64,000 bases of DNA, from the sequence record MH355584.1; one strand, 5' to 3'. Position numbers and translations under genes: made by a program. Source of the DNA: Escherichia phage vB_EcoM_JB75. Position 1 is the first letter of the stretch; the number at the start of each line of letters is the position of its first letter. The notes under the pieces were generated by a model. It was not told the DNA's origin and made no database searches. It worked only from the letters and a program-made list of their open reading frames with translations. Of this stretch, positions 4,488 to 62,249 are shown piece by piece.

Positions 4488-6467
4488 TTAACCAGCAAGA
4501 CCAGTTAACTCATCGAAATCTGCACCAGTAGCAGTTGCTACGAAGTTCAAGGTAATGTAGTTAATGCTTCTAGCCGGTTGAATGTAGAATGTTGCAACAA
4601 ACTCATTTCTATCAATTACTGACGGAGTGTTATTTGTTGTATCGCAAACTACACGATATTCATAAATTCCACCGAGAGCTTTAATTCCCTGTAAGTATTG
4701 GGCAGTTTCTGTGCGGAATGATGAACGAGTAAACGCGTTGTTTAATTCGAACAAACGATATTTTGAACTACGTCCGATATTCGTTTTCAACATATTAAAC
4801 AGACGACGAACGTTAATACGATCAAATGGAGAAGGAACAGAAGTAGCTGTTTTATCACCATACAATACGTAACCATCACCACCTGTACCAGTTACTGGGT
4901 TGATAGCTTCTTGATATAAACGGTCGCGCTGAGCTTGGCGAGTTTCAATAGCAAGTTTAATAACGTTAAGAATCTGACCACGATTATAACCAGCTGGAGA
5001 CATCCAAGTCTGAGAAACGTTATCAGTTCTCGCGCATAAACCAGCAATGTCAGCTGCTAATGGAACCCAACGATTTACATCATTATATTTGTCATACTGA
5101 TATTTGTAGTTACCATCAATTGCTGCGTAGGTTGAACTAATATTAAAGTTATTATCAGTATATGAACCTGCCGCAGTTCTCCAGTTAACTAAATTATCTA
5201 CTGCACGAGTTACAGGAATTCCAACCACAGTTTCACGCGGAGGAGAGCACAATACTAAGCAATCTTGGCGAGCATCCCCAATTGAAACGACGTGTTTTTG
5301 GACAGTAGATGCTGTTTCTAAAGATTCACCGGCACAAGAACCCGCAATAAACAGTTGAACATCAACAGATTCACGGTCAGCAAAGAAGTCCCAAGCTTCC
5401 ATTAAATCTCCTGCTGTTACTTCAGCATTTGATGATAATCCACCAGACAGAGTTAAAATTCCAGAGAAGCCTTCTGGCCAGTTTTGTGCAGTTGCAAAAA
5501 TATATTCTGAGCCGCCTTTTGCGAAAAAGTCATCGATATAGATGTTACTATCGTAAATATCTTTTTCACCACGCTTAGTTGAAAGAACAACGCTTTGAAC
5601 AATAGCATCATTGCGACGAACTATAATAGCGTACTGTGAATCAGTTTGCGGTCCATATCCAAACACTGCTTTGGCAGTAGATGCACGAGTACCACCACCT
5701 GGATAAATTGGGAGTAATGCAGAAGCTCCTTTTGCATAGTCAGCTTTAGATACGATTTCAATTTCAATTTTATCGCCTAATTCGCCTGGATAGAGAGCTA
5801 CTACTCCTGGAATTCCATATTTTTCAAGATTTGCCTGAAAATCAACTGCTGTCATAGCAGTTTCAGCGCTCTCGATTTCAGCTAATAAAATACCGGAATC
5901 AGTAATAATTTTTCCAAGAGTTATTACTGCAGCTAAACCGGAAGAAGATGAAGAAATTTCTGCAGTCCAGTTAGAACCTAATGTTGGGTATTCGCCAACT
6001 TCTTTAGCTTTAGCAATAATTTTTGCAGTAGGAATATTAATTTTCTTAATTTTTCCATCAGCATCTACTTCGGTAATTTTACCTTCTGTTTCAACATCTT
6101 CTGAAACATATTTGACCGTGATTTTATCTCCAACCGCGTAGTTACTACCTGGGGTAGAAATTGTGTATTCAATATTACCAGCAATCGGAGATGAGTTTTT
6201 AGCGGTATCTCTATCGACAGCGCGCACAACTCGCAAATCATTTCCATATTGTAAGAAATTCATTGCAGACATAAAATAGTCAGCAGTTTCAGCTGTAGGT
6301 TGACCAAAAGTATTAACTAAATCTACTTCGTTTGTAACCTGTTTAATCTGAAAAGCAGGACCCCACTGGAATTTACCGGCCAAAGCTGCTGTACCAGTAG
6401 AGTTATTAACCACGGTGCTTTGAACCGTAGTTTCTTTGAGCTCAATGCCCGGAGATAATAAAGTCAT
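4488..6467 (-). CDS. 18: tail sheath protein gp18
   Basis: 659 aa, T4 gp18 length and position. Confidence 0.9.
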   Translation of the reverse strand: MTLLSPGIELKETTVQSTVVNNSTGTAALAGKFQWGPAFQIKQVTNEVDLVNTFGQPTAETADYFMSAMNFLQYGNDLRVVRAVDRDTAKNSSPIAGNIEYTISTPGSNYAVGDKITVKYVSEDVETEGKITEVDADGKIKKINIPTAKIIAKAKEVGEYPTLGSNWTAEISSSSSGLAAVITLGKIITDSGILLAEIESAETAMTAVDFQANLEKYGIPGVVALYPGELGDKIEIEIVSKADYAKGASALLPIYPGGGTRASTAKAVFGYGPQTDSQYAIIVRRNDAIVQSVVLSTKRGEKDIYDSNIYIDDFFAKGGSEYIFATAQNWPEGFSGILTLSGGLSSNAEVTAGDLMEAWDFFADRESVDVQLFIAGSCAGESLETASTVQKHVVSIGDARQDCLVLCSPPRETVVGIPVTRAVDNLVNWRTAAGSYTDNNFNISSTYAAIDGNYKYQYDKYNDVNRWVPLAADIAGLCARTDNVSQTWMSPAGYNRGQILNVIKLAIETRQAQRDRLYQEAINPVTGTGGDGYVLYGDKTATSVPSPFDRINVRRLFNMLKTNIGRSSKYRLFELNNAFTRSSFRTETAQYLQGIKALGGIYEYRVVCDTTNNTPSVIDRNEFVATFYIQPARSINYITLNFVATATGADFDELTGLAG

Positions 6468-6495
6468 TTTTAATCCTCTTTAATATGCTTTAATA

Positions 6496-9636
<3,141 letters not shown>

Positions 9637-32117: not shown

Positions 32118-32190
32118 TGGGAATTAGCCAAGTTGGTAAGGCATAGCACTTTGACTGCTAGATGCAAAGGTTCGAGTCCTTTATTCCCAG
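32118..32190 (+). tRNA. tRNA-Gln (anticodon UUG)
   Basis: Cloverleaf by eye: acceptor TGGGAAT/ATTCCCA, anticodon arm TAGCA-CTTTGAC-TGCTA, T-loop GGTTCGAGTCC. Confidence 0.8.
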
Positions 32191-32191
32191 C

Positions 32192-32278
32192 GCGAGAATG
32201 GTCAAATTGGTAAAGGCACAGCACTTAAAATGCTGCGGAATGATTTCCTTGTGGGTTCGAGTCCCACTTCTCGCACCA
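32192..32278 (+). tRNA. tRNA-Leu (anticodon UAA)
   Basis: Acceptor GCGAGAA/TTCTCGC, anticodon loop CTTAAAA, long variable arm, encoded CCA. Confidence 0.8.
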
Positions 32279-32283
32279 AATTT

Positions 32284-32357
<74 letters not shown>

Positions 32358-32367
32358 ATTTAATTTA

Positions 32368-32441
32368 CTCCGTGTAGCTCAGTTTGGTAGAGCGTCTGCT
32401 TTGGGAGCAGAATGTCGTAGGTTCAAATCCTGCCACGGAGA
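32368..32441 (+). tRNA. tRNA-Pro (anticodon UGG)
   Basis: Acceptor CTCCGTG/CACGGAG, anticodon arm TCTGC-TTTGGGA-GCAGA, T-loop GGTTCAAATCC. Confidence 0.8.
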
Positions 32442-32443
32442 CT

Positions 32444-32533
32444 GGAGGCGTGGCAGAGTGGTTTAATGCACCGGTCTTGAAAACCGGCAGTCGCTCCGGC
32501 GACTCATAGGTTCAAATCCTATCGCCTCCGCCA
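32444..32533 (+). tRNA. tRNA-Ser (anticodon UGA)
   Basis: Acceptor GGAGGCG/CGCCTCC, anticodon loop CTTGAAA, long variable arm, encoded CCA. Confidence 0.8.
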
Positions 32534-32538
32534 GTTTT

Positions 32539-32614
32539 GCTGATTTAGCTCAGTAGGTAGAGCACCTCACTTGTAATGAGGACGTCGGCGGTTCGATTCC
32601 GTCAATCAGCACCA
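32539..32614 (+). tRNA. tRNA-Thr (anticodon UGU)
   Basis: Acceptor GCTGATT/AATCAGC, anticodon arm CCTCA-CTTGTAA-TGAGG, encoded CCA. Confidence 0.8.
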
Positions 32615-32615
32615 A

Positions 32616-32690
32616 GGCCCTGTAGCTGGAAGGTTCAAGCAAGCGACTCATAATCGCCAGATGGTGGTTCAATTCCACCCAGGGCCACCA
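32616..32690 (+). tRNA. tRNA-Ile/Met (anticodon CAU; T4-type tRNA-Ile reads AUA after modification)
   Basis: Acceptor GGCCCTG/CAGGGCC, anticodon loop CTCATAA, T-loop GGTTCAATTCC, encoded CCA. Confidence 0.7.
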
Positions 32691-32703
32691 AATTAAGAAT
32701 TAA

Positions 32704-32790
32704 GGGGAGTTATCCCGTAGAGGTAGCGGTGTGGACTGTAAATCCATTGTCATTGCGACTCGGGTGGTTCGACTCCATCACTCCCCACCA
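32704..32790 (+). tRNA. tRNA-Tyr-like (anticodon GUA), long-variable-arm type
   Basis: Acceptor GGGGAGT/ACTCCCC, anticodon arm GTGGA-CTGTAAA-TCCAT, variable arm, T-arm GGTGG-TTCGACT-CCATC, CCA; D-arm is weak so it could be a variant or pseudo-tRNA. Confidence 0.55.
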
Positions 32791-32794
32791 ATTT

Positions 32795-32869
32795 GGATGT
32801 GTAGCTCAGTGGTAGAGCAGTTGACTGTTAATCAATTGGTCCATGGTTCGAATCCATGCATGTCCGCCA
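32795..32869 (+). tRNA. tRNA-Asn (anticodon GUU)
   Basis: Acceptor GGATGTG/CATGTCC (two GU pairs), D-arm GCTC-AGTGGT-AGAGC, anticodon loop CTGTTAA, T-arm CATGG-TTCGAAT-CCATG, CCA. Confidence 0.7.
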
Positions 32870-32873
32870 AATA

Positions 32874-32949
32874 CGAGGCATAGCTCAGAAGGAAGAGCAA
32901 GGACCTTCTAAGTCCTGGGTCGTAGGTTCGATCCCTACTGCCTCGACCA
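32874..32949 (+). tRNA. tRNA-Arg (anticodon UCU)
   Basis: Acceptor CGAGGCA/TGCCTCG, anticodon arm AGGAC-CTTCTAA-GTCCT, T-arm GTAGG-TTCGATC-CCTAC, CCA. Confidence 0.8.
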
Positions 32950-37882: not shown

Positions 37883-38851
<969 letters not shown>

Positions 38852-38886
38852 AGTTGTTTACTTTCTCCTAGAATTGTGATAGTATA
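38852..38886 (+). promoter_or_regulatory. T4-type early promoter
   Basis: AGTTGTTTACTTT ... TGTGATAGTATATT. Confidence 0.5.
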
Positions 38887-38939
38887 TTCACAGTTGCTTG
38901 AAGAGACAAATTACTAATTAAAATATTTAAAGGAAACAT

Positions 38940-39413
38940 ATGAAAACATATCAAGAATTTATCACTGAAGCAGCTATTAATTCTCAAATTATTGCTGAAT
39001 CTTTTACTGATCTTTTGAAATTTAAAAAAGGTCAAAAAATTACTGCTGTATTGGATGATGGTACAGAAGTTGAGATGGATGTACAGGGATATAATTATGC
39101 AGTAGATGGAAAACTGTATAATAAATCTCATGCTAAATTTGATTCATTTGACGACTTTGTTAATACAGTTGAAGATGAAAAAACTCGTCGATCCATTGCA
39201 ACTGGTGATGCTAAGGTTCTTATGGCACATGGTCATGAACGCATTCGCGCTAAACAGAATAAAATGGGTGAAGATAATTTTGCATTAGTTGGTTATCAAT
39301 CTGGTAAACAAACTTATGGCTATCAACGTACTGCTACAATGTATAATAAAAATGGTAAAATTGCCTTTGTAAATAGTAAAGGTTCTATTCAGTACGTTAA
39401 ATCGTTCAAATAA
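38940..39413 (+). CDS. internal protein (CTS MKTYQEFITEA), in the ipIII position
   Basis: 157 aa; canonical CTS with ITE cleavage site; early promoter upstream. Confidence 0.7.
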   Translation: MKTYQEFITEAAINSQIIAESFTDLLKFKKGQKITAVLDDGTEVEMDVQGYNYAVDGKLYNKSHAKFDSFDDFVNTVEDEKTRRSIATGDAKVLMAHGHERIRAKQNKMGEDNFALVGYQSGKQTYGYQRTATMYNKNGKIAFVNSKGSIQYVKSFK

Positions 39414-39566
39414 GCAAATAAGAAATATGGGAACAAACTGGACCTCATGATTCTATGAGGGATTCCCGCCAACCTGTAATAAGGTCGAGCCTGAGTGCGG
39501 TAATGGGTAAATACAGAAATGGACAATTCATGCGCCATGGAATGGCCCAAATTTAGAGAGAATAAA

Positions 39567-40106
39567 ATGAGAACATTTTTAACTGGTCCTTATCTATCCC
39601 TGATGAATGCTTTTACACACCATTCTGATGCTAGAGTAGAAGAAATTTGTAAAAACGATTATATCCCACCATTTGAAGACTTACTTAAACAGTATTGCAC
39701 ACTTCGACTAGATGGTGGACGTCAATCCGGTAAATCAATTGCTGTGACTAACTTCGCTGCTAATTGGTTGTATGATGGCGGAACAGTTATTGTTCTTTCT
39801 AATACTTCAGCTTACGCTAAAATTTCTGCAAATAACATTAAAAAGGAATTTTCGCGTTATTCTAATGATGATATACGTTTTCGTTTATTTACTGATTCTG
39901 TGCGCAGTTTTATTGGTAATAAAGGAAGCAAGTTCAGAGGTTTATCGCTTTCACGAATTTTGTATATAATTGATGAGCCTGTTAAATCTCCTGATATGGA
40001 TAAAATTTACGATATTCATATTGAAACTGTGCAACACTGCTGCAATAGTAAATGTTGCATTGGTGGTATTACTCGTCCACAGTTTTTCGTAATCGGAATG
40101 CAATGA
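39567..40106 (+). CDS. small P-loop NTPase with C-terminal Cys cluster
   Basis: Walker A GGRQSGKS, Walker B ILYIIDEP, C-terminal HCCNSKCC; start taken at ATG 39567 behind GAGAG. Confidence 0.55.
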   Translation: MRTFLTGPYLSLMNAFTHHSDARVEEICKNDYIPPFEDLLKQYCTLRLDGGRQSGKSIAVTNFAANWLYDGGTVIVLSNTSAYAKISANNIKKEFSRYSNDDIRFRLFTDSVRSFIGNKGSKFRGLSLSRILYIIDEPVKSPDMDKIYDIHIETVQHCCNSKCCIGGITRPQFFVIGMQ

Positions 40107-40432
40107 TGACAGACACTCAGCTTTTCGAATATCTTTATTTTTCGCCAAAAACTATTAAAAATAAATTGGTGAATCATTTTGAAATTTTAGCAAATAATAA
40201 CATTTTGAGCGAATTTTATCCCAAGCAATACAAATTACAAAAAGGTGTATTCAAAGGATGCAGAGTTTTGTGCACTGCTCCTAATGCAAGATTAATGAAT
40301 AAAATTCCGTATTTTACCATGGAATTTATTGATGGACCTTTTAAAGGATTAATTACGCAAAGTTTAATGGCATATGATTCTGAGCCGTTTTTAATTAAAG
40401 AACAATCTTGGATAAATTTATTTTCTAATTGA
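40103..40432 (+). CDS. hypothetical protein, translationally coupled to the P-loop NTPase
   Basis: ATGA overlap with upstream stop; 109 aa. Confidence 0.5.
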
Positions 40433-40439
40433 GGTTTAT

Positions 40440-40802
40440 ATGAAAGCATATCAAATTCTTGAAGGCACACACAAAGGCACTATTTATTTTGAAGATGGTA
40501 TTCAAGCACGAATTATCGTTTCTAAAACCTTTAAAGAGGACTCTTTTGTAGACCCAGAAATTTTCTATGGTTTGCATGCCCGTGAAATTGAAATTGAGCA
40601 ACAGCCTACAGTTAAAATTGAAGGTGGTCAACACCTGAACGTTAACGTTCTGCGTCGTGAAACTCTGGAAGATGCAGTTAAGCATCCGGAAAAATATCCG
40701 CAGCTGACCATCCGTGTATCCGGTTATGCAGTTCGCTTTAACTCTCTGACTCCGGAACAGCAGCGCGACGTTATCGCTCGTACCTTTACCGAGAGTTTGT
40801 AA
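40440..40802 (+). CDS. autonomous glycyl radical cofactor (GrcA/YfiD-like; T4 Y06I-type)
   Basis: 120 aa; C-terminal ~60 residues match E. coli YfiD/GrcA as I recall it, including the radical glycine in RVSGYAVRF. Confidence 0.85.
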
Positions 40803-41023
40803 TGGCAAAGATAATTATTGAAGGTTCTGAAGATGTGCTAAATGCTTTCGCCGAGTGGTTTAGTAATTCAGGCGAACAGCAATTTAATGAAGCCTGGAAT
40901 ATGGGTGATATTGATGGAATTTATCCTACGACAGAAATTTCTGTTCAGGGATATGGCATTCATGAACCTATTCGTTTAGTTGAATACGATTTATGCACTG
41001 GTGAGGAAGTCAAATATGATTGA
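40802..41023 (+). CDS. hypothetical protein
   Basis: 73 aa ORF, start overlaps upstream stop. Confidence 0.5.
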   Translation: MAKIIIEGSEDVLNAFAEWFSNSGEQQFNEAWNMGDIDGIYPTTEISVQGYGIHEPIRLVEYDLCTGEEVKYD

Positions 41024-41282
41024 AGATATTAAGGGTTATAAACCACATACCGACGAAAAAATCGGTAAAGTAAATGCTATTAAAGACGCTGAAGTTCGTT
41101 TAGGACTTATCTTTGATGCTTTATATGATGAATTCTGGGAAGCGTGGGACGATTGCGAAGACTTTGAACTCGCGAAGAATTATGCTGAAAGCCTCGATCA
41201 GTTAGCTATTGCTAAAACGAAACTCAAAGAAGCCAGTATGTGGGCTTGTCGTGCTGTGTTCCAACCAGAGGAAAAATACTAA
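41016..41282 (+). CDS. hypothetical protein
   Basis: ATG at 41016 overlaps upstream stop (ATGA); 88 aa. Confidence 0.5.
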
Positions 41283-41560
41283 TGGCTCAATTAAGCGCAG
41301 GGTTTGGTTATGAGTATTATACTGCCCCTCGTCGTGTGTCTGCTGCTCCTAAGAAAATTCAAAGTCTTGATGACTTCCAGGAAGTAGTCCGTAACGCTTT
41401 CCAGGACTATGCACGGTATCTTAAAGAAGATTCACAGGACTGTCTCGAAGAAGATGAAATTGCTTACTATACGCAGCGTCTTGAACAGCTCAAAAATCTA
41501 CATGAGGTTCGTGCAGAAGTTTCAAAGTCTATGAATAAATTGATTAGATTTAAAGAATAA
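41282..41560 (+). CDS. hypothetical protein
   Basis: TAATG overlap start at 41282; 92 aa. Confidence 0.5.
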
Positions 41561-41561
41561 C

Positions 41562-41594
41562 TGTTTACTTTTCCTCTTGACTGTGGTATAATTT
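41562..41594 (+). promoter_or_regulatory. T4-type early promoter (upstream of regB)
   Basis: CTGTTTACTTTT ... TGTGGTATAATTT. Confidence 0.55.
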
Positions 41595-41619
41595 TTCTAT
41601 CAGTTAAGAGGAGAACAAC

Positions 41620-42081
41620 ATGACTATCAATACAGAAGTTTTTATCCGTCGAAATAAGCTTCGTCGTCACTTTGAGTCGGAGTTTCGTCAAATTAACAAT
41701 GAGATTCGTGAGGCATCAAAAGCAGCAGGAGTCTCATCGTTTCATCTAAAATATTCTCAACATCTTCTTGATCGTGCAATTCAACGGGAGATTGATGAGA
41801 CATATGTTTTTGAATTATTCCATAAAATAAAAGACCATGTTTTAGAAGTTAATGAATTCCTGAGTATGCCTCCGCGTCCTGACATTGACGAGGATTTTAT
41901 TGATGGGGTTGAATATCGTCCTGGACGTTTAGAAATCACAGATGGAAATCTTTGGCTTGGATTTACGGTTTGTAAGCCTAATGAGAAGTTCAAAAACCCG
42001 TCACTTCAATGCAGGATGGCAATTATCAACAGTCGTCGTTTACCAGGAAAGGCTTCTAAAGCAGTAATTAAAACTCAATGA
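41620..42081 (+). CDS. regB: site-specific endoribonuclease RegB
   Basis: 153 aa; length and position match T4 regB; own promoter and SD. Confidence 0.8.
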   Translation: MTINTEVFIRRNKLRRHFESEFRQINNEIREASKAAGVSSFHLKYSQHLLDRAIQREIDETYVFELFHKIKDHVLEVNEFLSMPPRPDIDEDFIDGVEYRPGRLEITDGNLWLGFTVCKPNEKFKNPSLQCRMAIINSRRLPGKASKAVIKTQ

Positions 42082-42088
42082 GGTAAGC

Positions 42089-42634
42089 ATGAGAAAAGCA
42101 CTACTCGCTGGTCTATTGGCCATTTCAATGATGGCACATAGCTCCGAGCATACTTTCAGTAATGTCCAACTCGATAACATGCGTTACGCGTATCAATTCG
42201 GGGAACAATTTTCTAAGGATGGAAAATATAAAACACACAAAAATATCCACAAGAGCGGATTAGGTCATATAATGGCTGCTATTTTATGGCAAGAAAGCTC
42301 TGGCGGAGTTAATTTAAAATCTAAACCAAAGCATCACGCTTATGGAATGTTCCAAAATTATTTGCCTACTATGCGAGCAAGAGTTAAGGAACTTGGTTAT
42401 AATATGACCGATGCTGAAATAAAAAGAATGTTGAATAAACGATCCAATTCAGCTTCCTGGGCGTACATTGAACTTTCTTATTGGTTAAATATACATAAGG
42501 GCGATATAAGAAAAGCAATATCATCTTATAATTCGGGATGGAATGTTAAAGCAGGTTCTAAATATGCTTCTGAAGTCCTAGAAAAGGCTAATTACCTTAA
42601 AAATAATAAACTTTTGGAAATAGTAAATGACTAA
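42089..42634 (+). CDS. secreted lytic-transglycosylase-like protein (T4 vs.1 position)
   Basis: N-terminal signal peptide MRKALLAGLLAISMMAHS; SLT-type motifs LWQESSGG and YNSGWN. Confidence 0.6.
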   Translation: MRKALLAGLLAISMMAHSSEHTFSNVQLDNMRYAYQFGEQFSKDGKYKTHKNIHKSGLGHIMAAILWQESSGGVNLKSKPKHHAYGMFQNYLPTMRARVKELGYNMTDAEIKRMLNKRSNSASWAYIELSYWLNIHKGDIRKAISSYNSGWNVKAGSKYASEVLEKANYLKNNKLLEIVND

Positions 42635-58449: not shown

Positions 58450-58923
58450 ATGTTATTGACTGGCAAATTATACAAAGAAGAAAAACAGAAATTTTATAAT
58501 GCACAAAACGGTAAATGCTTAATTTGCCAACGAGAACTAAATCCTGATGTTCAAGCTAATCACCTCGACCATGACCATGAATTAAATGGACCAAAAGCAG
58601 GAAAGATACGTGGATTGCTTTGTAATCTCTGCAATGCCGCAGAAGGTCAAATGAAGCATAAATTTAATCGTTCTGGCTTAAAGGGACAAGGTGTTGATTA
58701 TCTTGAATGGTTAGAAAATTTACTTACTTATTTAAAATCCGATTACACCCAAAATAATATTCACCCTAACTTTGTTGGAGATAAATCAAAGGAATTTTCT
58801 CGTTTAGGAAAAGAGGAAATGATGGCCGAGATGCTTCAAAGAGGATTTGAATATAATGAATCTGACACCAAAACACAGTTAATAGCTTCATTTAAGAAGC
58901 AGCTTAGAAAGAGTTTAAAATGA
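58450..58923 (+). CDS. 49: recombination endonuclease VII (Holliday junction resolvase)
   Basis: 157 aa; zinc-binding cysteines CLICQ...CNLC and HLDHDHELNG; matches recalled T4 gp49. Confidence 0.9.
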   Translation: MLLTGKLYKEEKQKFYNAQNGKCLICQRELNPDVQANHLDHDHELNGPKAGKIRGLLCNLCNAAEGQMKHKFNRSGLKGQGVDYLEWLENLLTYLKSDYTQNNIHPNFVGDKSKEFSRLGKEEMMAEMLQRGFEYNESDTKTQLIASFKKQLRKSLK

Positions 58924-59457
58924 CAATTGAAAAAGAAATTGAAGGATTGATTCATAAAACTAATAAAGACCTTTTAAACGAGAATGCTAATAAAGATTCT
59001 CGTGTTTTTCCAACTCAACGGGACCTTATGGCTGGTATTGTGTCTAAACACATTGCCAAAAATATGGTCCCGTCTTTTATTATGAAAGCGCATGAAAGCG
59101 GAATTATTCATTTCCATGATATTGATTATTCCCCTGCTCTTCCATTTACTAATTGCTGTTTAGTAGATTTAAAAGGAATGCTTGAGAACGGATTTAAGCT
59201 TGGTAATGCACAGATTGAAACTCCTAAATCAATTGGCGTTGCTACTGCAATTATGGCACAAATTACTGCACAGGTTGCTTCTCACCAATACGGCGGAACT
59301 ACATTTGCTAATGTCGATAAAGTACTTTCTCCTTATGTTAAACGCACCTACGCAAAACATATTGAGGATGCAGAAAAATGGCAAATCGCTGATGCGTTGA
59401 ATTATGCTCAATCTAAAACAGAAAAAGACGTATACGATGCATTCCAAGCTTATGAGT
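58920..59457 (+). CDS. nrdD: anaerobic ribonucleotide reductase NrdD, exon 1
   Basis: In-frame stop 59463-59465 lies just inside the predicted intron; exon end placed at the U of UAUGAGU that can pair with intron GCUCAU. Confidence 0.75.
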
Positions 59458-60481
59458 TAATTTAATTCAGGCTCATGTAAAACCGGTCTAAACGGGGAAC
59501 CTCTCTAGTAGACAATCCCGTGCTAAATGTTCTTTTGAACTAAATGCCTAACGACTAACCGTGATGAATGTAGCGGTGTAGAATAGAAGCTAATGCTATT
59601 CGAAACGGCCGGCATCGAAAGATGAAGATATAGTCTAATCTGCATGGCGACATGCAGCAGTCATCTTGTATAAATAAGATTATCTTATGAATACGAGGTG
59701 AAACAATGAAATGGATAAAAAGACGTTGTACTAAAATAAAAGATAAAGACGCATTTACATACTTAGTTAAGTTTTCTAATGGCGACATTTATATCGGTTA
59801 TAAAAAATTTAGAACAATTAAAAACAAGCCCACAAACTGGAAAACTTACACAACGTCATCTAAGTATATAAATGAACGCTTAAAAACTGATACACCTACT
59901 AAATGGATAATTTTAAAAACATTTGATAGTTATAAAGATGCATTAAAACATGAAGAAGAGGTCATACGTAAGTATTTTTATAGCAAAAAATGTTTAAATA
60001 AATCCATAGGCGGTAAAAAGTTTTATAAGCATCCGGATACTGAAGAACATATTCAAAAATTAAGAGATGCTCATAAGGGTAAAGTGTTATCCGAATCTCA
60101 TAAAAACAATATAAAATCTTCTGTAGCTGAATATTATGCTAAAAACGGAAGATCTAAGGAACATGTGCAAAATAATATCAATAGTCGAAAAAGTAAAAAA
60201 CAAGTATCGATAAAGCTTAAAAATAAAACTTTTAGAAGTTTTAAAAAAGCAGCGGAATATTTAAATTGCACTGAAAGTGAAGTCGAAACTCATCCTCTTG
60301 TTTTGAGTATTAAGACTACTATTCATAAAGTTCCTGAATATGTGGTTGTTGACGGTATTAAGTATACGTCTTATATAGAAGCAGCTAAAGCGCTAAATTT
60401 TCATCCTAGCACTATAAAAGAACGTTGCATATCTATGGACTATCCAAATTTTGTTGTTTCATATAAACGGGCATGAATTTG
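59458..60481 (+). mobile_element. group I self-splicing intron in nrdD (sunY-type) carrying a homing endonuclease ORF
   Basis: Interrupts the NrdD frame; 5' core 59470-59700 has P7-like GACUA/UAGUC; ORF occupies the 3' part; splice sites inferred from P1 pairing, terminal G and frame, +/- a few nt. Confidence 0.7.
59706..60476 (+). CDS. GIY-YIG homing endonuclease (I-TevII-like)
   Basis: 256 aa; GIY-YIG motifs GDIYIGYKK and second YxG block; lies inside the nrdD intron. Confidence 0.8.
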   Translation: MKWIKRRCTKIKDKDAFTYLVKFSNGDIYIGYKKFRTIKNKPTNWKTYTTSSKYINERLKTDTPTKWIILKTFDSYKDALKHEEEVIRKYFYSKKCLNKSIGGKKFYKHPDTEEHIQKLRDAHKGKVLSESHKNNIKSSVAEYYAKNGRSKEHVQNNINSRKSKKQVSIKLKNKTFRSFKKAAEYLNCTESEVETHPLVLSIKTTIHKVPEYVVVDGIKYTSYIEAAKALNFHPSTIKERCISMDYPNFVVSYKRA

Positions 60482-61782
60482 CGACTCATGCTGAATATAA
60501 TGATGAAGTAAATACACTTTTCAGCTCTAATGGACAAACGCCTTTTGTAACAATTACATTTGGTACGGGAACTGACTGGACTGAACGAATGATTCAGAAA
60601 GCAATTCTGAAAAATCGTATTAAAGGTCTTGGTCGTGATGGGATAACTCCTATTTTCCCTAAGCTTGTTATGTTTGTTGAAGAAGGTGTTAATCTTTATA
60701 AAGACGATCCGAACTATGATATTAAGCAGCTTGCTCTAGAGTGCGCAAGCAAAAGAATGTATCCTGATATTATTTCAGCTAAGAACAATAAAGCTATCAC
60801 CGGCTCATCTATTCCTGTTTCTCCAATGGGTTGCCGCAGTTTCTTGAGTGTGTGGAAAGATTCAACCGGTAATGAAATTCTTGATGGACGTAATAATCTT
60901 GGTGTTGTAACACTGAATCTTCCTCGTATCGCATTAGATTCTTATATTGGAACACAGTTCAATGAACAGAAATTTATCGAATTGTTCAATGAGCGAATGG
61001 ATTTATGTTTTGAAGCTTTGATGTGTAGAATTAGTTCCTTAAAAGGAGTTAAAGCTACTGTTGCTCCTATTCTTTATCAAGAAGGTGCATTCGGGGTTCG
61101 TCTTAAACCTGATGACGATATAATTGAGTTATTTAAAAACGGCAGAAGTTCAGTGTCTTTAGGATACATTGGTATTCACGAATTGAATATTCTTGTCGGT
61201 CGTGATATTGGACGAGAAATTTTAACTAAAATGAATGCTCATCTTAAACAGTGGACTGAAAGAACCGGATTTGCTTTTAGTTTATATTCGACTCCTGCTG
61301 AAAACCTTTGTTATCGCTTCTGTAAACTTGATACAGAAAAATATGGAAGTGTAAAAGATGTTACCGATAAAGGCTGGTACACTAACAGTTTCCATGTTTC
61401 AGTAGAAGAAAATATTACTCCGTTTGAAAAGATTTCTCGTGAAGCGCCATATCATTTCATTGCGACAGGTGGTCACATTTCTTATGTTGAACTTCCTGAT
61501 ATGAAAAATAACTTGAAAGGTCTTGAGGCCGTATGGGATTATGCTGCACAACATTTAGATTATTTTGGTGTTAACATGCCGGTAGATAAATGTTTTACAT
61601 GCGGAAGTACCCATGAAATGACTCCTACTGAAAACGGATTTGTTTGTTCTATTTGTGGAGAAACTGATCCTAAAAAGATGAATACCATAAGAAGAACGTG
61701 TGGTTATTTGGGAAATCCTAACGAACGCGGATTTAATCTCGGTAAAAATAAAGAAATCATGCATAGGGTTAAACACCAATGA
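60482..61782 (+). CDS. nrdD: anaerobic ribonucleotide reductase NrdD, exon 2
   Basis: Glycyl-radical motif RRTCGYLG near C-terminus; Cys-rich zinc site CFTCGS...CSICG. Confidence 0.8.
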
Positions 61783-62249
61783 ATTATGATAGATTTTATC
61801 CTTGCGATTTTGTGAATGGCCCTGGTTGCAGGGTCGTTCTTTTCGTTACAGGTTGTTTGCATAAATGCGAAGGGTGTTATAATAAATCAACATGGAATGC
61901 TAGAAATGGTATTCCATTCACTGGTGAAACACTAGAACAATTAATTGAATGTTTGAATAATGATTATATAGAAGGATTAACTATAACTGGAGGAGACCCT
62001 CTCTATCCTGATAATCGAGATGTTATTCATTGCATCGTTCAAACAGTAAAAAATCTTTATCCCAATAAAAGCATTTGGTTGTGGACAGGATATAAGTTTG
62101 AAGATATTAAACAACTAGAAATGCTTAAATATGTTGATGTTATTATTGATGGGAAGTATGAGAAAAATCTTCCGACTAAAAAGCTATGGAGAGGATCAGA
62201 TAATCAGCGGCTTTGGTCAAATACCGATGGGGTGTGGAAACATGATTAA
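61779..62249 (+). CDS. nrdG: anaerobic RNR activating enzyme NrdG (radical SAM)
   Basis: 156 aa; radical-SAM cysteine triad CLHKCEGC; overlaps nrdD stop. Confidence 0.85.
   Translation: MNYDRFYPCDFVNGPGCRVVLFVTGCLHKCEGCYNKSTWNARNGIPFTGETLEQLIECLNNDYIEGLTITGGDPLYPDNRDVIHCIVQTVKNLYPNKSIWLWTGYKFEDIKQLEMLKYVDVIIDGKYEKNLPTKKLWRGSDNQRLWSNTDGVWKHD

Follow-up and report, generated by a model that had tools for sequence, protein, structure and literature searches.

Gene Identity and Genomic Context

The stretch of Escherichia phage vB_EcoM_JB75 analyzed here (64,000 nt of record MH355584.1, referred to below as the window) carries at 40440–40802 a gene that is best read as the Tequatrovirus ortholog of phage T4 vs.6 (Y06I), i.e., as a phage-encoded autonomous glycyl radical cofactor of the GrcA type. 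The features discussed below are, with the basis of each assignment in brackets:

40431..40434, + strand: Shine-Dalgarno sequence GAGG, 5 nt 5' of the ATG (direct sequence reading)
40440..40802, + strand: vs.6/Y06I ortholog, 120 aa, GrcA-type autonomous glycyl radical cofactor, a spare part for pyruvate formate-lyase (PFL) (ORF from ATG to TAA)
40440..40617, + strand: phage-type 5' half (residues 1–59 and the first base of codon 60), diverged homolog of the GrcA N-terminus (GC content, identity to grcA, hhalign)
40618..40789, + strand: host-derived conversion patch, equal to E. coli grcA nt 200–371 and encoding nearly the whole structured glycyl-radical domain (172-nt exact match)
40722..40724, + strand: codon GGT of Gly95, the predicted radical glycine, corresponding to G102 of GrcA and G734 of PflB (alignments to GrcA and PflB)
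40790..40802, + strand: 3' tail with four synonymous differences from E. coli and the stop codon, the 3' edge of the patch (alignment to grcA)
58920..61782, + strand: nrdD, class III ribonucleotide reductase, interrupted by an intron (Pfam NRDD and Gly_radical)
61779..62249, + strand: nrdG, radical-SAM activase of NrdD (Pfam Fer4_12, E 2e-48, and Radical_SAM)

The gene is part of a tightly packed, co-directional array, in which its Shine-Dalgarno sequence overlaps the TGA stop (40430–40432) of the upstream vs.7-like ORF and its own stop codon shares sequence with the ATG of the ORF that follows. A scan of positions 38800–42200 for promoters and terminators gave sites no commoner than in shuffled sequence and none specific to the vs.6 ortholog. 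The opposite-strand ORF at 40425–40808 (127 aa) was rejected as a mirror ORF of the real gene.

Over its 363 nt the gene is 100% identical to gp124 of Escherichia phage vB_EcoM_OE5505 (Tequatrovirus), whose annotation reads "autonomous glycyl radical cofactor GrcA", and T4 vs.6 (NC_000866, 63557–63919; NP_049730) is also annotated as GrcA. The window protein and T4 Vs.6/Y06I have the same length (120 aa) and 118 of 120 residues in common, T4 having P54 and H73 where the window has Q54 and R73. The two genes also share their position in the array vs.8-vs.7-vs.6-vs.5-vs.4-vs.3-regB and an identical 5' junction of the patch described below. The identity and the biochemical role of vs.6 are already known and are textbook-level matters. 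Nolan et al. (2006; PMC1524935) placed the gene in a small group of ORFs without known function that were conserved throughout the T4-like genomes of the time. Homologs are found by tblastn in 1,588 of 50,697 phage records, T5-like, Aeromonas and Vibrio phages included, and they are routinely annotated in T4-like and T5-like phage genomes.

Some details of the neighborhood were recorded along the way. The mechanical ORFs of the vs.7-like (40052–40432) and vs.8-like (39519–40106) genes were judged to start too early because the PHROG profiles begin at residues 18 and 19; the shorter CDSs of OE5505 (330 and 540 nt) agree with the profile starts. At the place of window positions 38940–40106, T4 (5254–7416 of the compared record) has vs.8-denV-ipII-ipIII-e, and the OE5505 annotation of the same region lists a single internal virion protein, a 102-nt ORF and the shorter vs.8-like ORF, without denV or ipII.

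A Stand-Alone Protein of the GrcA Type

The initial annotation had proposed a stand-alone glycyl-radical protein of the GrcA/YfiD type with a host-like stretch of about 60 residues at its C-terminus and a radical glycine in the motif RVSGYAVRF, and on each of these points it was right. Pfam Gly_radical (PF01228) matches residues 60–101 with E 2.5e-18 and 67 bits (cutoff 22.2), the motif occupies residues 92–100 so that G95 aligns with G102 of GrcA, and the C-terminal 60 residues (E61–L120) are identical to those of E. coli GrcA at 60 of 60 positions. The best match in the PDB is E. coli GrcA itself (6OWR, E 9e-42), followed by PflB (E 5e-26), to whose residues 697–759 the window protein is identical at 49 of 63 positions (78%).

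The GrcA family model TIGR04365 aligns with residues 20–120 (profile positions 25–126; 154.9 bits, E 1.2e-45). This score does not reach the 170-bit equivalog cutoff of NCBIfam because the N-terminus has diverged, and RefSeq names the T4 and OE5505 proteins GrcA despite the sub-cutoff score of the window protein. The full length of the protein is matched by phrog_1209, a family that is labeled "unknown function" in PHROGs v4. The protein has the features that define GrcA (TIGR04365, IPR011140): the size of a stand-alone protein (~14 kDa) without a catalytic barrel, the 120-aa ORF being bounded by neighboring ORFs; a C-terminal PFL-type glycyl-radical domain with its radical glycine; and, according to the hhalign comparison given below, an N-terminal region of the GrcA type. 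Judged by its sequence, the window protein thus fits the structural definition of GrcA, and according to the literature its T4 ortholog fits the biochemical one.

Compared with E. coli GrcA (YfiD; P68066, PDB 6OWR), the phage protein is likewise a stand-alone protein of ~14 kDa with a homologous N-terminal region and, presumably, the same partners, cleaved PflB and PflA. It differs in being seven residues shorter, in an N-terminal half that is only ~35% identical over 40 aligned positions, in its first 20 residues, which lie outside the TIGR04365 alignment, and in its expression from an array in the phage early region rather than from the host grcA promoter. With the C-terminal domain of PflB (residues 697–759; PDB 1H16, 2PFL), which is the part of PflB that a spare part replaces, it shares the RVSGYAVRF loop, but it has neither the catalytic barrel nor the active-site cysteines of PflB.

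The N-terminal half had been taken to be phage-specific, and this did not hold. When the N-terminal regions of phage and bacterial GrcA proteins were aligned with the conserved C-terminus removed and then compared by hhalign, all 60 of 60 columns aligned with a probability of 95.6% (E 1.3e-8, 28% identity). No NCBIfam model matched the N-terminal 59 aa alone. The 5' half resembles the rest of the window in composition (GC 0.35, GC3 0.24) and is under purifying selection, as pN relative to Mosigvirus (0.04–0.06) is far below pS (0.30–0.42). The N-terminal half is accordingly better described as a diverged homolog of the GrcA N-terminus than as a phage invention. In YfiD, residues 1–60 are disordered and are needed for binding to cleaved PFL and for efficient radical installation, while residues 61–127 take on the fold of PFL residues 693–759 (PMC8683613).

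A Tract of DNA Identical to the Host Chromosome

At the nucleotide level the two halves of the gene are very different. Of the 5' 178 nt, 83 (47%) agree with E. coli grcA, whereas of the 3' 185 nt 181 (97.8%) do so, including an unbroken run of 172 nt. The four differences lie in the tail, where the window has ACC GAG AGT TTG and E. coli ACT GAA AGC CTG. This edge varies among related phages: T4 has ACT GAA, and is thus E. coli-like for two codons further, while Mosigviruses have AGT CTA. GC content rises at the 5' junction from 0.35 to 0.49 and GC3 from 0.24 to 0.44, the mean GC being 0.354 for the window and 0.48 for E. coli grcA.

Of 5,426 complete E. coli genomes, 5,156 have the 172-nt tract at 100% or 99.4% identity. 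In a megablast search of the 64-kb window against these 5,426 genomes it was the sole chromosomal match besides its pflB paralog, and no other host-derived segment was found in the window. Apart from the tract itself, the search returned its paralog in pflB (80%) and, on some plasmids, tRNA sequences. As pflB is only ~80% identical to the patch DNA, the donor was grcA and not pflB. With respect to the tRNA matches, the window has a cluster of ten tRNA genes at 32118–32949 (Gln, Leu, Gly, Pro, Ser, Thr, Met, Tyr, Asn, and Arg), of which the tRNA-Tyr stretch (~32700–32793) matches tRNA-Tyr genes of some E. coli plasmids at 90.5% identity.

An exact run of 172 nt is far beyond chance. Between enterobacterial grcA genes that are 80–90% identical to each other, the median of the longest exact run is 20 nt, and no run is longer than 57 nt. 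When the differences from E. coli were counted over a 57-codon segment that takes in the base after the patch, the window, T2, T4, and pSe_SNUABM_01 had one each, an Escherichia cryptic-clade genome two, Mosigviruses 2–5, Citrobacter 13, and Salmonella 29. Among phages further away there were 21–25 in Jiaodaviruses infecting Klebsiella, 29 in Matisse, 32 in CC31, and 44–46 in T5-like phages. The patch is consequently nearer to E. coli than the cryptic clade, Citrobacter, or Salmonella are.

It could be argued that no recent transfer took place and that the DNA identity reflects extreme purifying selection, on protein, codon usage, or mRNA structure, acting on a gene that was acquired long ago. 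The C-terminal domain is indeed very strongly conserved as protein across all phages and hosts. However, three phages (L115–L117) encode a C-terminal peptide identical to that of E. coli GrcA from DNA that is only 83% identical, and both this and the short background runs between grcA genes (57 nt at most) show that the identity of the patch DNA is not accounted for by selection at the protein level. There is not a single difference in 172 nt that span ~43 synonymous sites, whereas 40–60% of synonymous sites differ among phages and bacteria whose peptide is identical or almost so. The step in GC3 leads to a host-like and not a phage-like value, and 3'-half identities across phage records are bimodal (641 at 95% or more, five at 90–95%, and the rest at 88% or less), while those of the 5' half form a continuum. 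For practical purposes the synonymous-site data refute an origin without recent transfer, which can be given next to no credence. L115, L116, and L117 are IMG/VR phage contigs of 144–179 kb, and the identical peptide has 59 residues (at about 480–660).

Near-identity at synonymous sites, the step in composition, and a patch that is placed inside the host clade, in contrast to the rest of the gene, are the marks of a recently host-derived segment. The protein and nucleotide alignment with grcA that had been suggested as a check on host capture thus points to a recent host origin, with 60 of 60 residues and 172 of 172 bases identical and a host-like step in GC and codon use.

Replacement within a Pre-existing Phage Gene

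The best reading of these data is that an old, full-length phage homolog of grcA has received a recent host-to-phage gene-conversion patch of ~172 nt in its 3' half. Sister phages (Jiaodavirus, Karamvirus, Slopekvirus, T5-like phages, and others) also have the gene at full length, and its 3' half there differs from E. coli by 12–30%. Since the 120-aa architecture is found in sister genera without the host-identical 3' half, the gene predates the patch, which replaced part of a pre-existing homolog and was not a captured host module joined to a phage domain. Sequence comparison suggests that the patch is confined to Tequatrovirus and Mosigvirus, which infect E. coli. Synonymous divergence between the window and Mosigvirus is 0.30–0.42 in the 5' half and 0.05–0.14 in the patch (Fisher p down to 7e-5), whereas between the window and Jiaodavirus or CC31 it is ~0.5 in both halves.

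The initial annotation had inferred horizontal capture of a host C-terminal module, and the part of this claim that stands is the recent host origin of the DNA. In its full form such an account would have a phage-specific N-terminal domain fused to a captured host glycyl-radical module, giving a chimera that may repair the NrdD of the phage. The sharp junction between a 47%-identical and a 98%-identical part is what a fusion would produce, and the presence of NrdD and NrdG in the same window, as well as an Aeromonas phage homolog that adjoins nrdG (see below), would suit the proposed function. On the other hand the homology to the GrcA N-terminus takes in the whole N-terminal region (the hhalign result above), the sister genera have the same architecture with a 3' half that is not host-identical, and the protein has no similarity to the C-terminus of NrdD while being 78% identical to PflB. 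The junction also coincides with the onset of DNA homology, as homologous gene conversion predicts. A fusion is already largely refuted by these observations and is highly improbable.

With replacement by gene conversion as the preferred reading, the position of the 5' junction is easily understood. It lies at the start of strong protein conservation, and hence of DNA homology, which is also the start of the structured domain, and such a placement is expected under homologous or homeologous recombination. The direction of the transfer follows from the host gene: E. coli grcA is equally diverged from other enterobacterial grcA genes in both halves and has a uniform GC3, i.e., it is not a mosaic, so the DNA moved from host to phage. 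Transfer from phage to host was considered and ruled out by the uniform GC3 and synonymous divergence over both halves of E. coli grcA.

The phage is virulent and destroys the DNA of its host; all the same, an older, diverged homolog in its genome contains 172 nt that are identical to the host chromosome. No earlier notice of the patch at the nucleotide level was found in the searchable literature, Wagner et al. (2001) and the T4 genome review of 2003 excepted from the search. The patch is a tidy detail, possibly an under-reported one, and does not amount to a system of a new kind.

Probable Function as a Spare Part for PFL

YfiD and T4 Y06I are the sole two validated spare-part proteins (PMC8683613). 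Both were reported in 2001 to restore oxygen-cleaved PFL in vitro after installation of the radical by the PFL-activating enzyme, PFL-AE (PMC8683613, citing Wagner et al., 2001), and a 2026 review carries the same citation for Y06I (PMC13450708). The window protein, with two residues different, probably shares this role with T4 Y06I. The mechanism, which others have shown for the T4 and E. coli proteins, would in the window ortholog run as follows. Oxygen attacks the Gly734 radical of host PflB, by which the chain is cut and the enzyme inactivated. The C-terminal domain of the phage protein would then dock into cleaved PflB in place of the lost glycyl-radical loop, and host PflA would install a radical on Gly95, which should bring PFL activity back. 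The N-terminal half probably serves as in YfiD, in recognition of cleaved PFL and efficient radical installation.

Host gene expression is shut off by T-even phages, and the host can therefore not induce grcA after infection. It is conceivable that, with a copy of its own, the phage maintains PFL activity when oxygen levels fluctuate or under the microaerobic conditions of the gut. Sustained PFL activity might then convert pyruvate to acetyl-CoA, which yields ATP via acetate, and to formate, which may serve anaerobic dNTP synthesis. No report of an in vivo benefit of vs.6 to any phage was found in the searchable literature. Taken together, a vs.6 (Y06I) ortholog encoding a GrcA/YfiD-type cofactor, of old phage descent with a recent host gene-conversion patch and acting as a spare part for PFL, is given a probability of about 85%.

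The Link to NrdD and NrdG

It had also been pointed out that the window encodes the glycyl-radical enzyme NrdD and its activase NrdG, and that the protein may repair oxygen-cleaved glycyl-radical enzymes during infection. Both genes are present, though 18 kb downstream of the vs.6 ortholog and not adjacent to it. The nrdD gene is split into an ORF at 58920–59465, which covers positions 1–141 of the NRDD profile, and an ORF at 60451–61782 with NRDD positions 145–562 and the Gly_radical domain. The ORF between them (59706–60476) has SegE_GIY-YIG and NUMOD1 domains, and the interruption looks like a T4-type nrdD intron with a homing endonuclease.

As for repair, the part of the claim that survives concerns PFL, for which the role of the T4 ortholog has been published (Wagner et al., 2001, as cited in PMC8683613). 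A spare part for NrdD should have an NrdD-like C-terminal domain, and the window protein does not have one: in BLASTP it has no similarity to the product of the second nrdD exon (best E 1.6, away from the radical site), and there is no NrdD chain among its 34 PDB matches. Every phage homolog examined, including that of Aeromonas phage Ah1, has a radical loop and flanking helix of the PFL/GrcA type. As similarity to NrdD is lacking and the part is of the PFL type in every lineage, direct repair of NrdD appears unlikely from sequence. Two tempting misreadings of this gene, a domain fusion and a repair protein for NrdD, are thereby corrected.

A related proposal is that the protein acts directly in the anaerobic reductase system instead of on PFL, as a substrate or buffer for NrdG or as a radical reservoir for NrdD. 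Gene order gives this some appeal. In Ah1 (L103, 2367–5947) the homolog belongs to an operon of the order nrdA-nrdB-x-nrdD-nrdG-vs.6-nrdC-nrdH, with 4 nt shared between its start and the end of nrdG. In phage ELT4 a homolog adjoins a thioredoxin gene, and a function in nucleotide metabolism was speculated on by Nolan et al. (2006; PMC1524935). Yet neither the window nor T4 nor the T5-like phages have the gene near the nrd genes, the PFL/GrcA-type radical loop is found in all phage homologs, and the reported activator of Y06I is PFL-AE (as described in PMC8683613). The linkage in Ah1 is explained equally well by a supply of formate to NrdD, and a direct role in the reductase system is considered improbable.

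Such a supply would make the connection an indirect one. Class III ribonucleotide reductase draws its reducing equivalents from formate, for which T4 NrdD has been suggested to have a binding site (PMC4493059). It is plausible that vs.6 is linked to nrdD and nrdG through formate, as the product of PFL and the reductant of NrdD.

Patch Ends in T-Even Phages and a Comparison with Other Phages

The 3' edge of the patch and some sites near its 5' end differ between T4, the type shared by T2 and the window, pSe_SNUABM_01, and Mosigviruses. These varying tract ends fit several conversion events, or one event followed by recombination between phages, equally well. In a Tequatrovirus isolated on Salmonella the patch is of the E. 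coli type and not of the Salmonella type, which suggests that re-homogenization to the current host is not rapid.

It is tempting to speculate that vs.6 of the T-even phages of E. coli evolves in concert with the host chromosome through more than one conversion, which would keep the spare part matched to the PflB and PflA of E. coli and would serve to provide formate for the anaerobic ribonucleotide reductase of the phage. This proposal is tentative and on balance rather doubtful. If true, it would document a recurrent flow of DNA from the bacterial chromosome into strictly virulent phages that degrade host DNA. The vs.6 gene is in any case a convenient natural marker for measuring gene conversion from host to phage.

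Tequatrovirus and Mosigvirus genes share exact runs of 50–175 nt with host grcA. A further 88 phage homologs, from Klebsiella, Enterobacter, Yersinia, Aeromonas, Vibrio, and T5-like phages and from IMG/VR contigs, were compared with 81 bacterial grcA genes. The host set held one genome per species and was without grcA of K. pneumoniae, Aeromonas, and Vibrio. Against this set no host-identical patch was found among the 88, whose longest exact runs were all 56 nt or less and thus within the background between hosts (57 nt at most). The homologs of Jiaodavirus, Karamvirus, Slopekvirus, T5-like Demerecviridae, and Aeromonas and Vibrio phages (phrog_1209) accordingly share family and architecture with the window gene, but those sampled differ from it in having no long exact run with host grcA. 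Two contigs have raised identities in the 3' segment, likewise without a long exact run: a 167-kb Jiaodavirus-like contig from IMG/VR (L129; 90% to Pseudocitrobacter) and a 19-kb contig (L132; 91% to Yersinia artesiana). Such segments may stem from an older or only partial transfer of host DNA; alternatively, the host sample may lack grcA of the true host.
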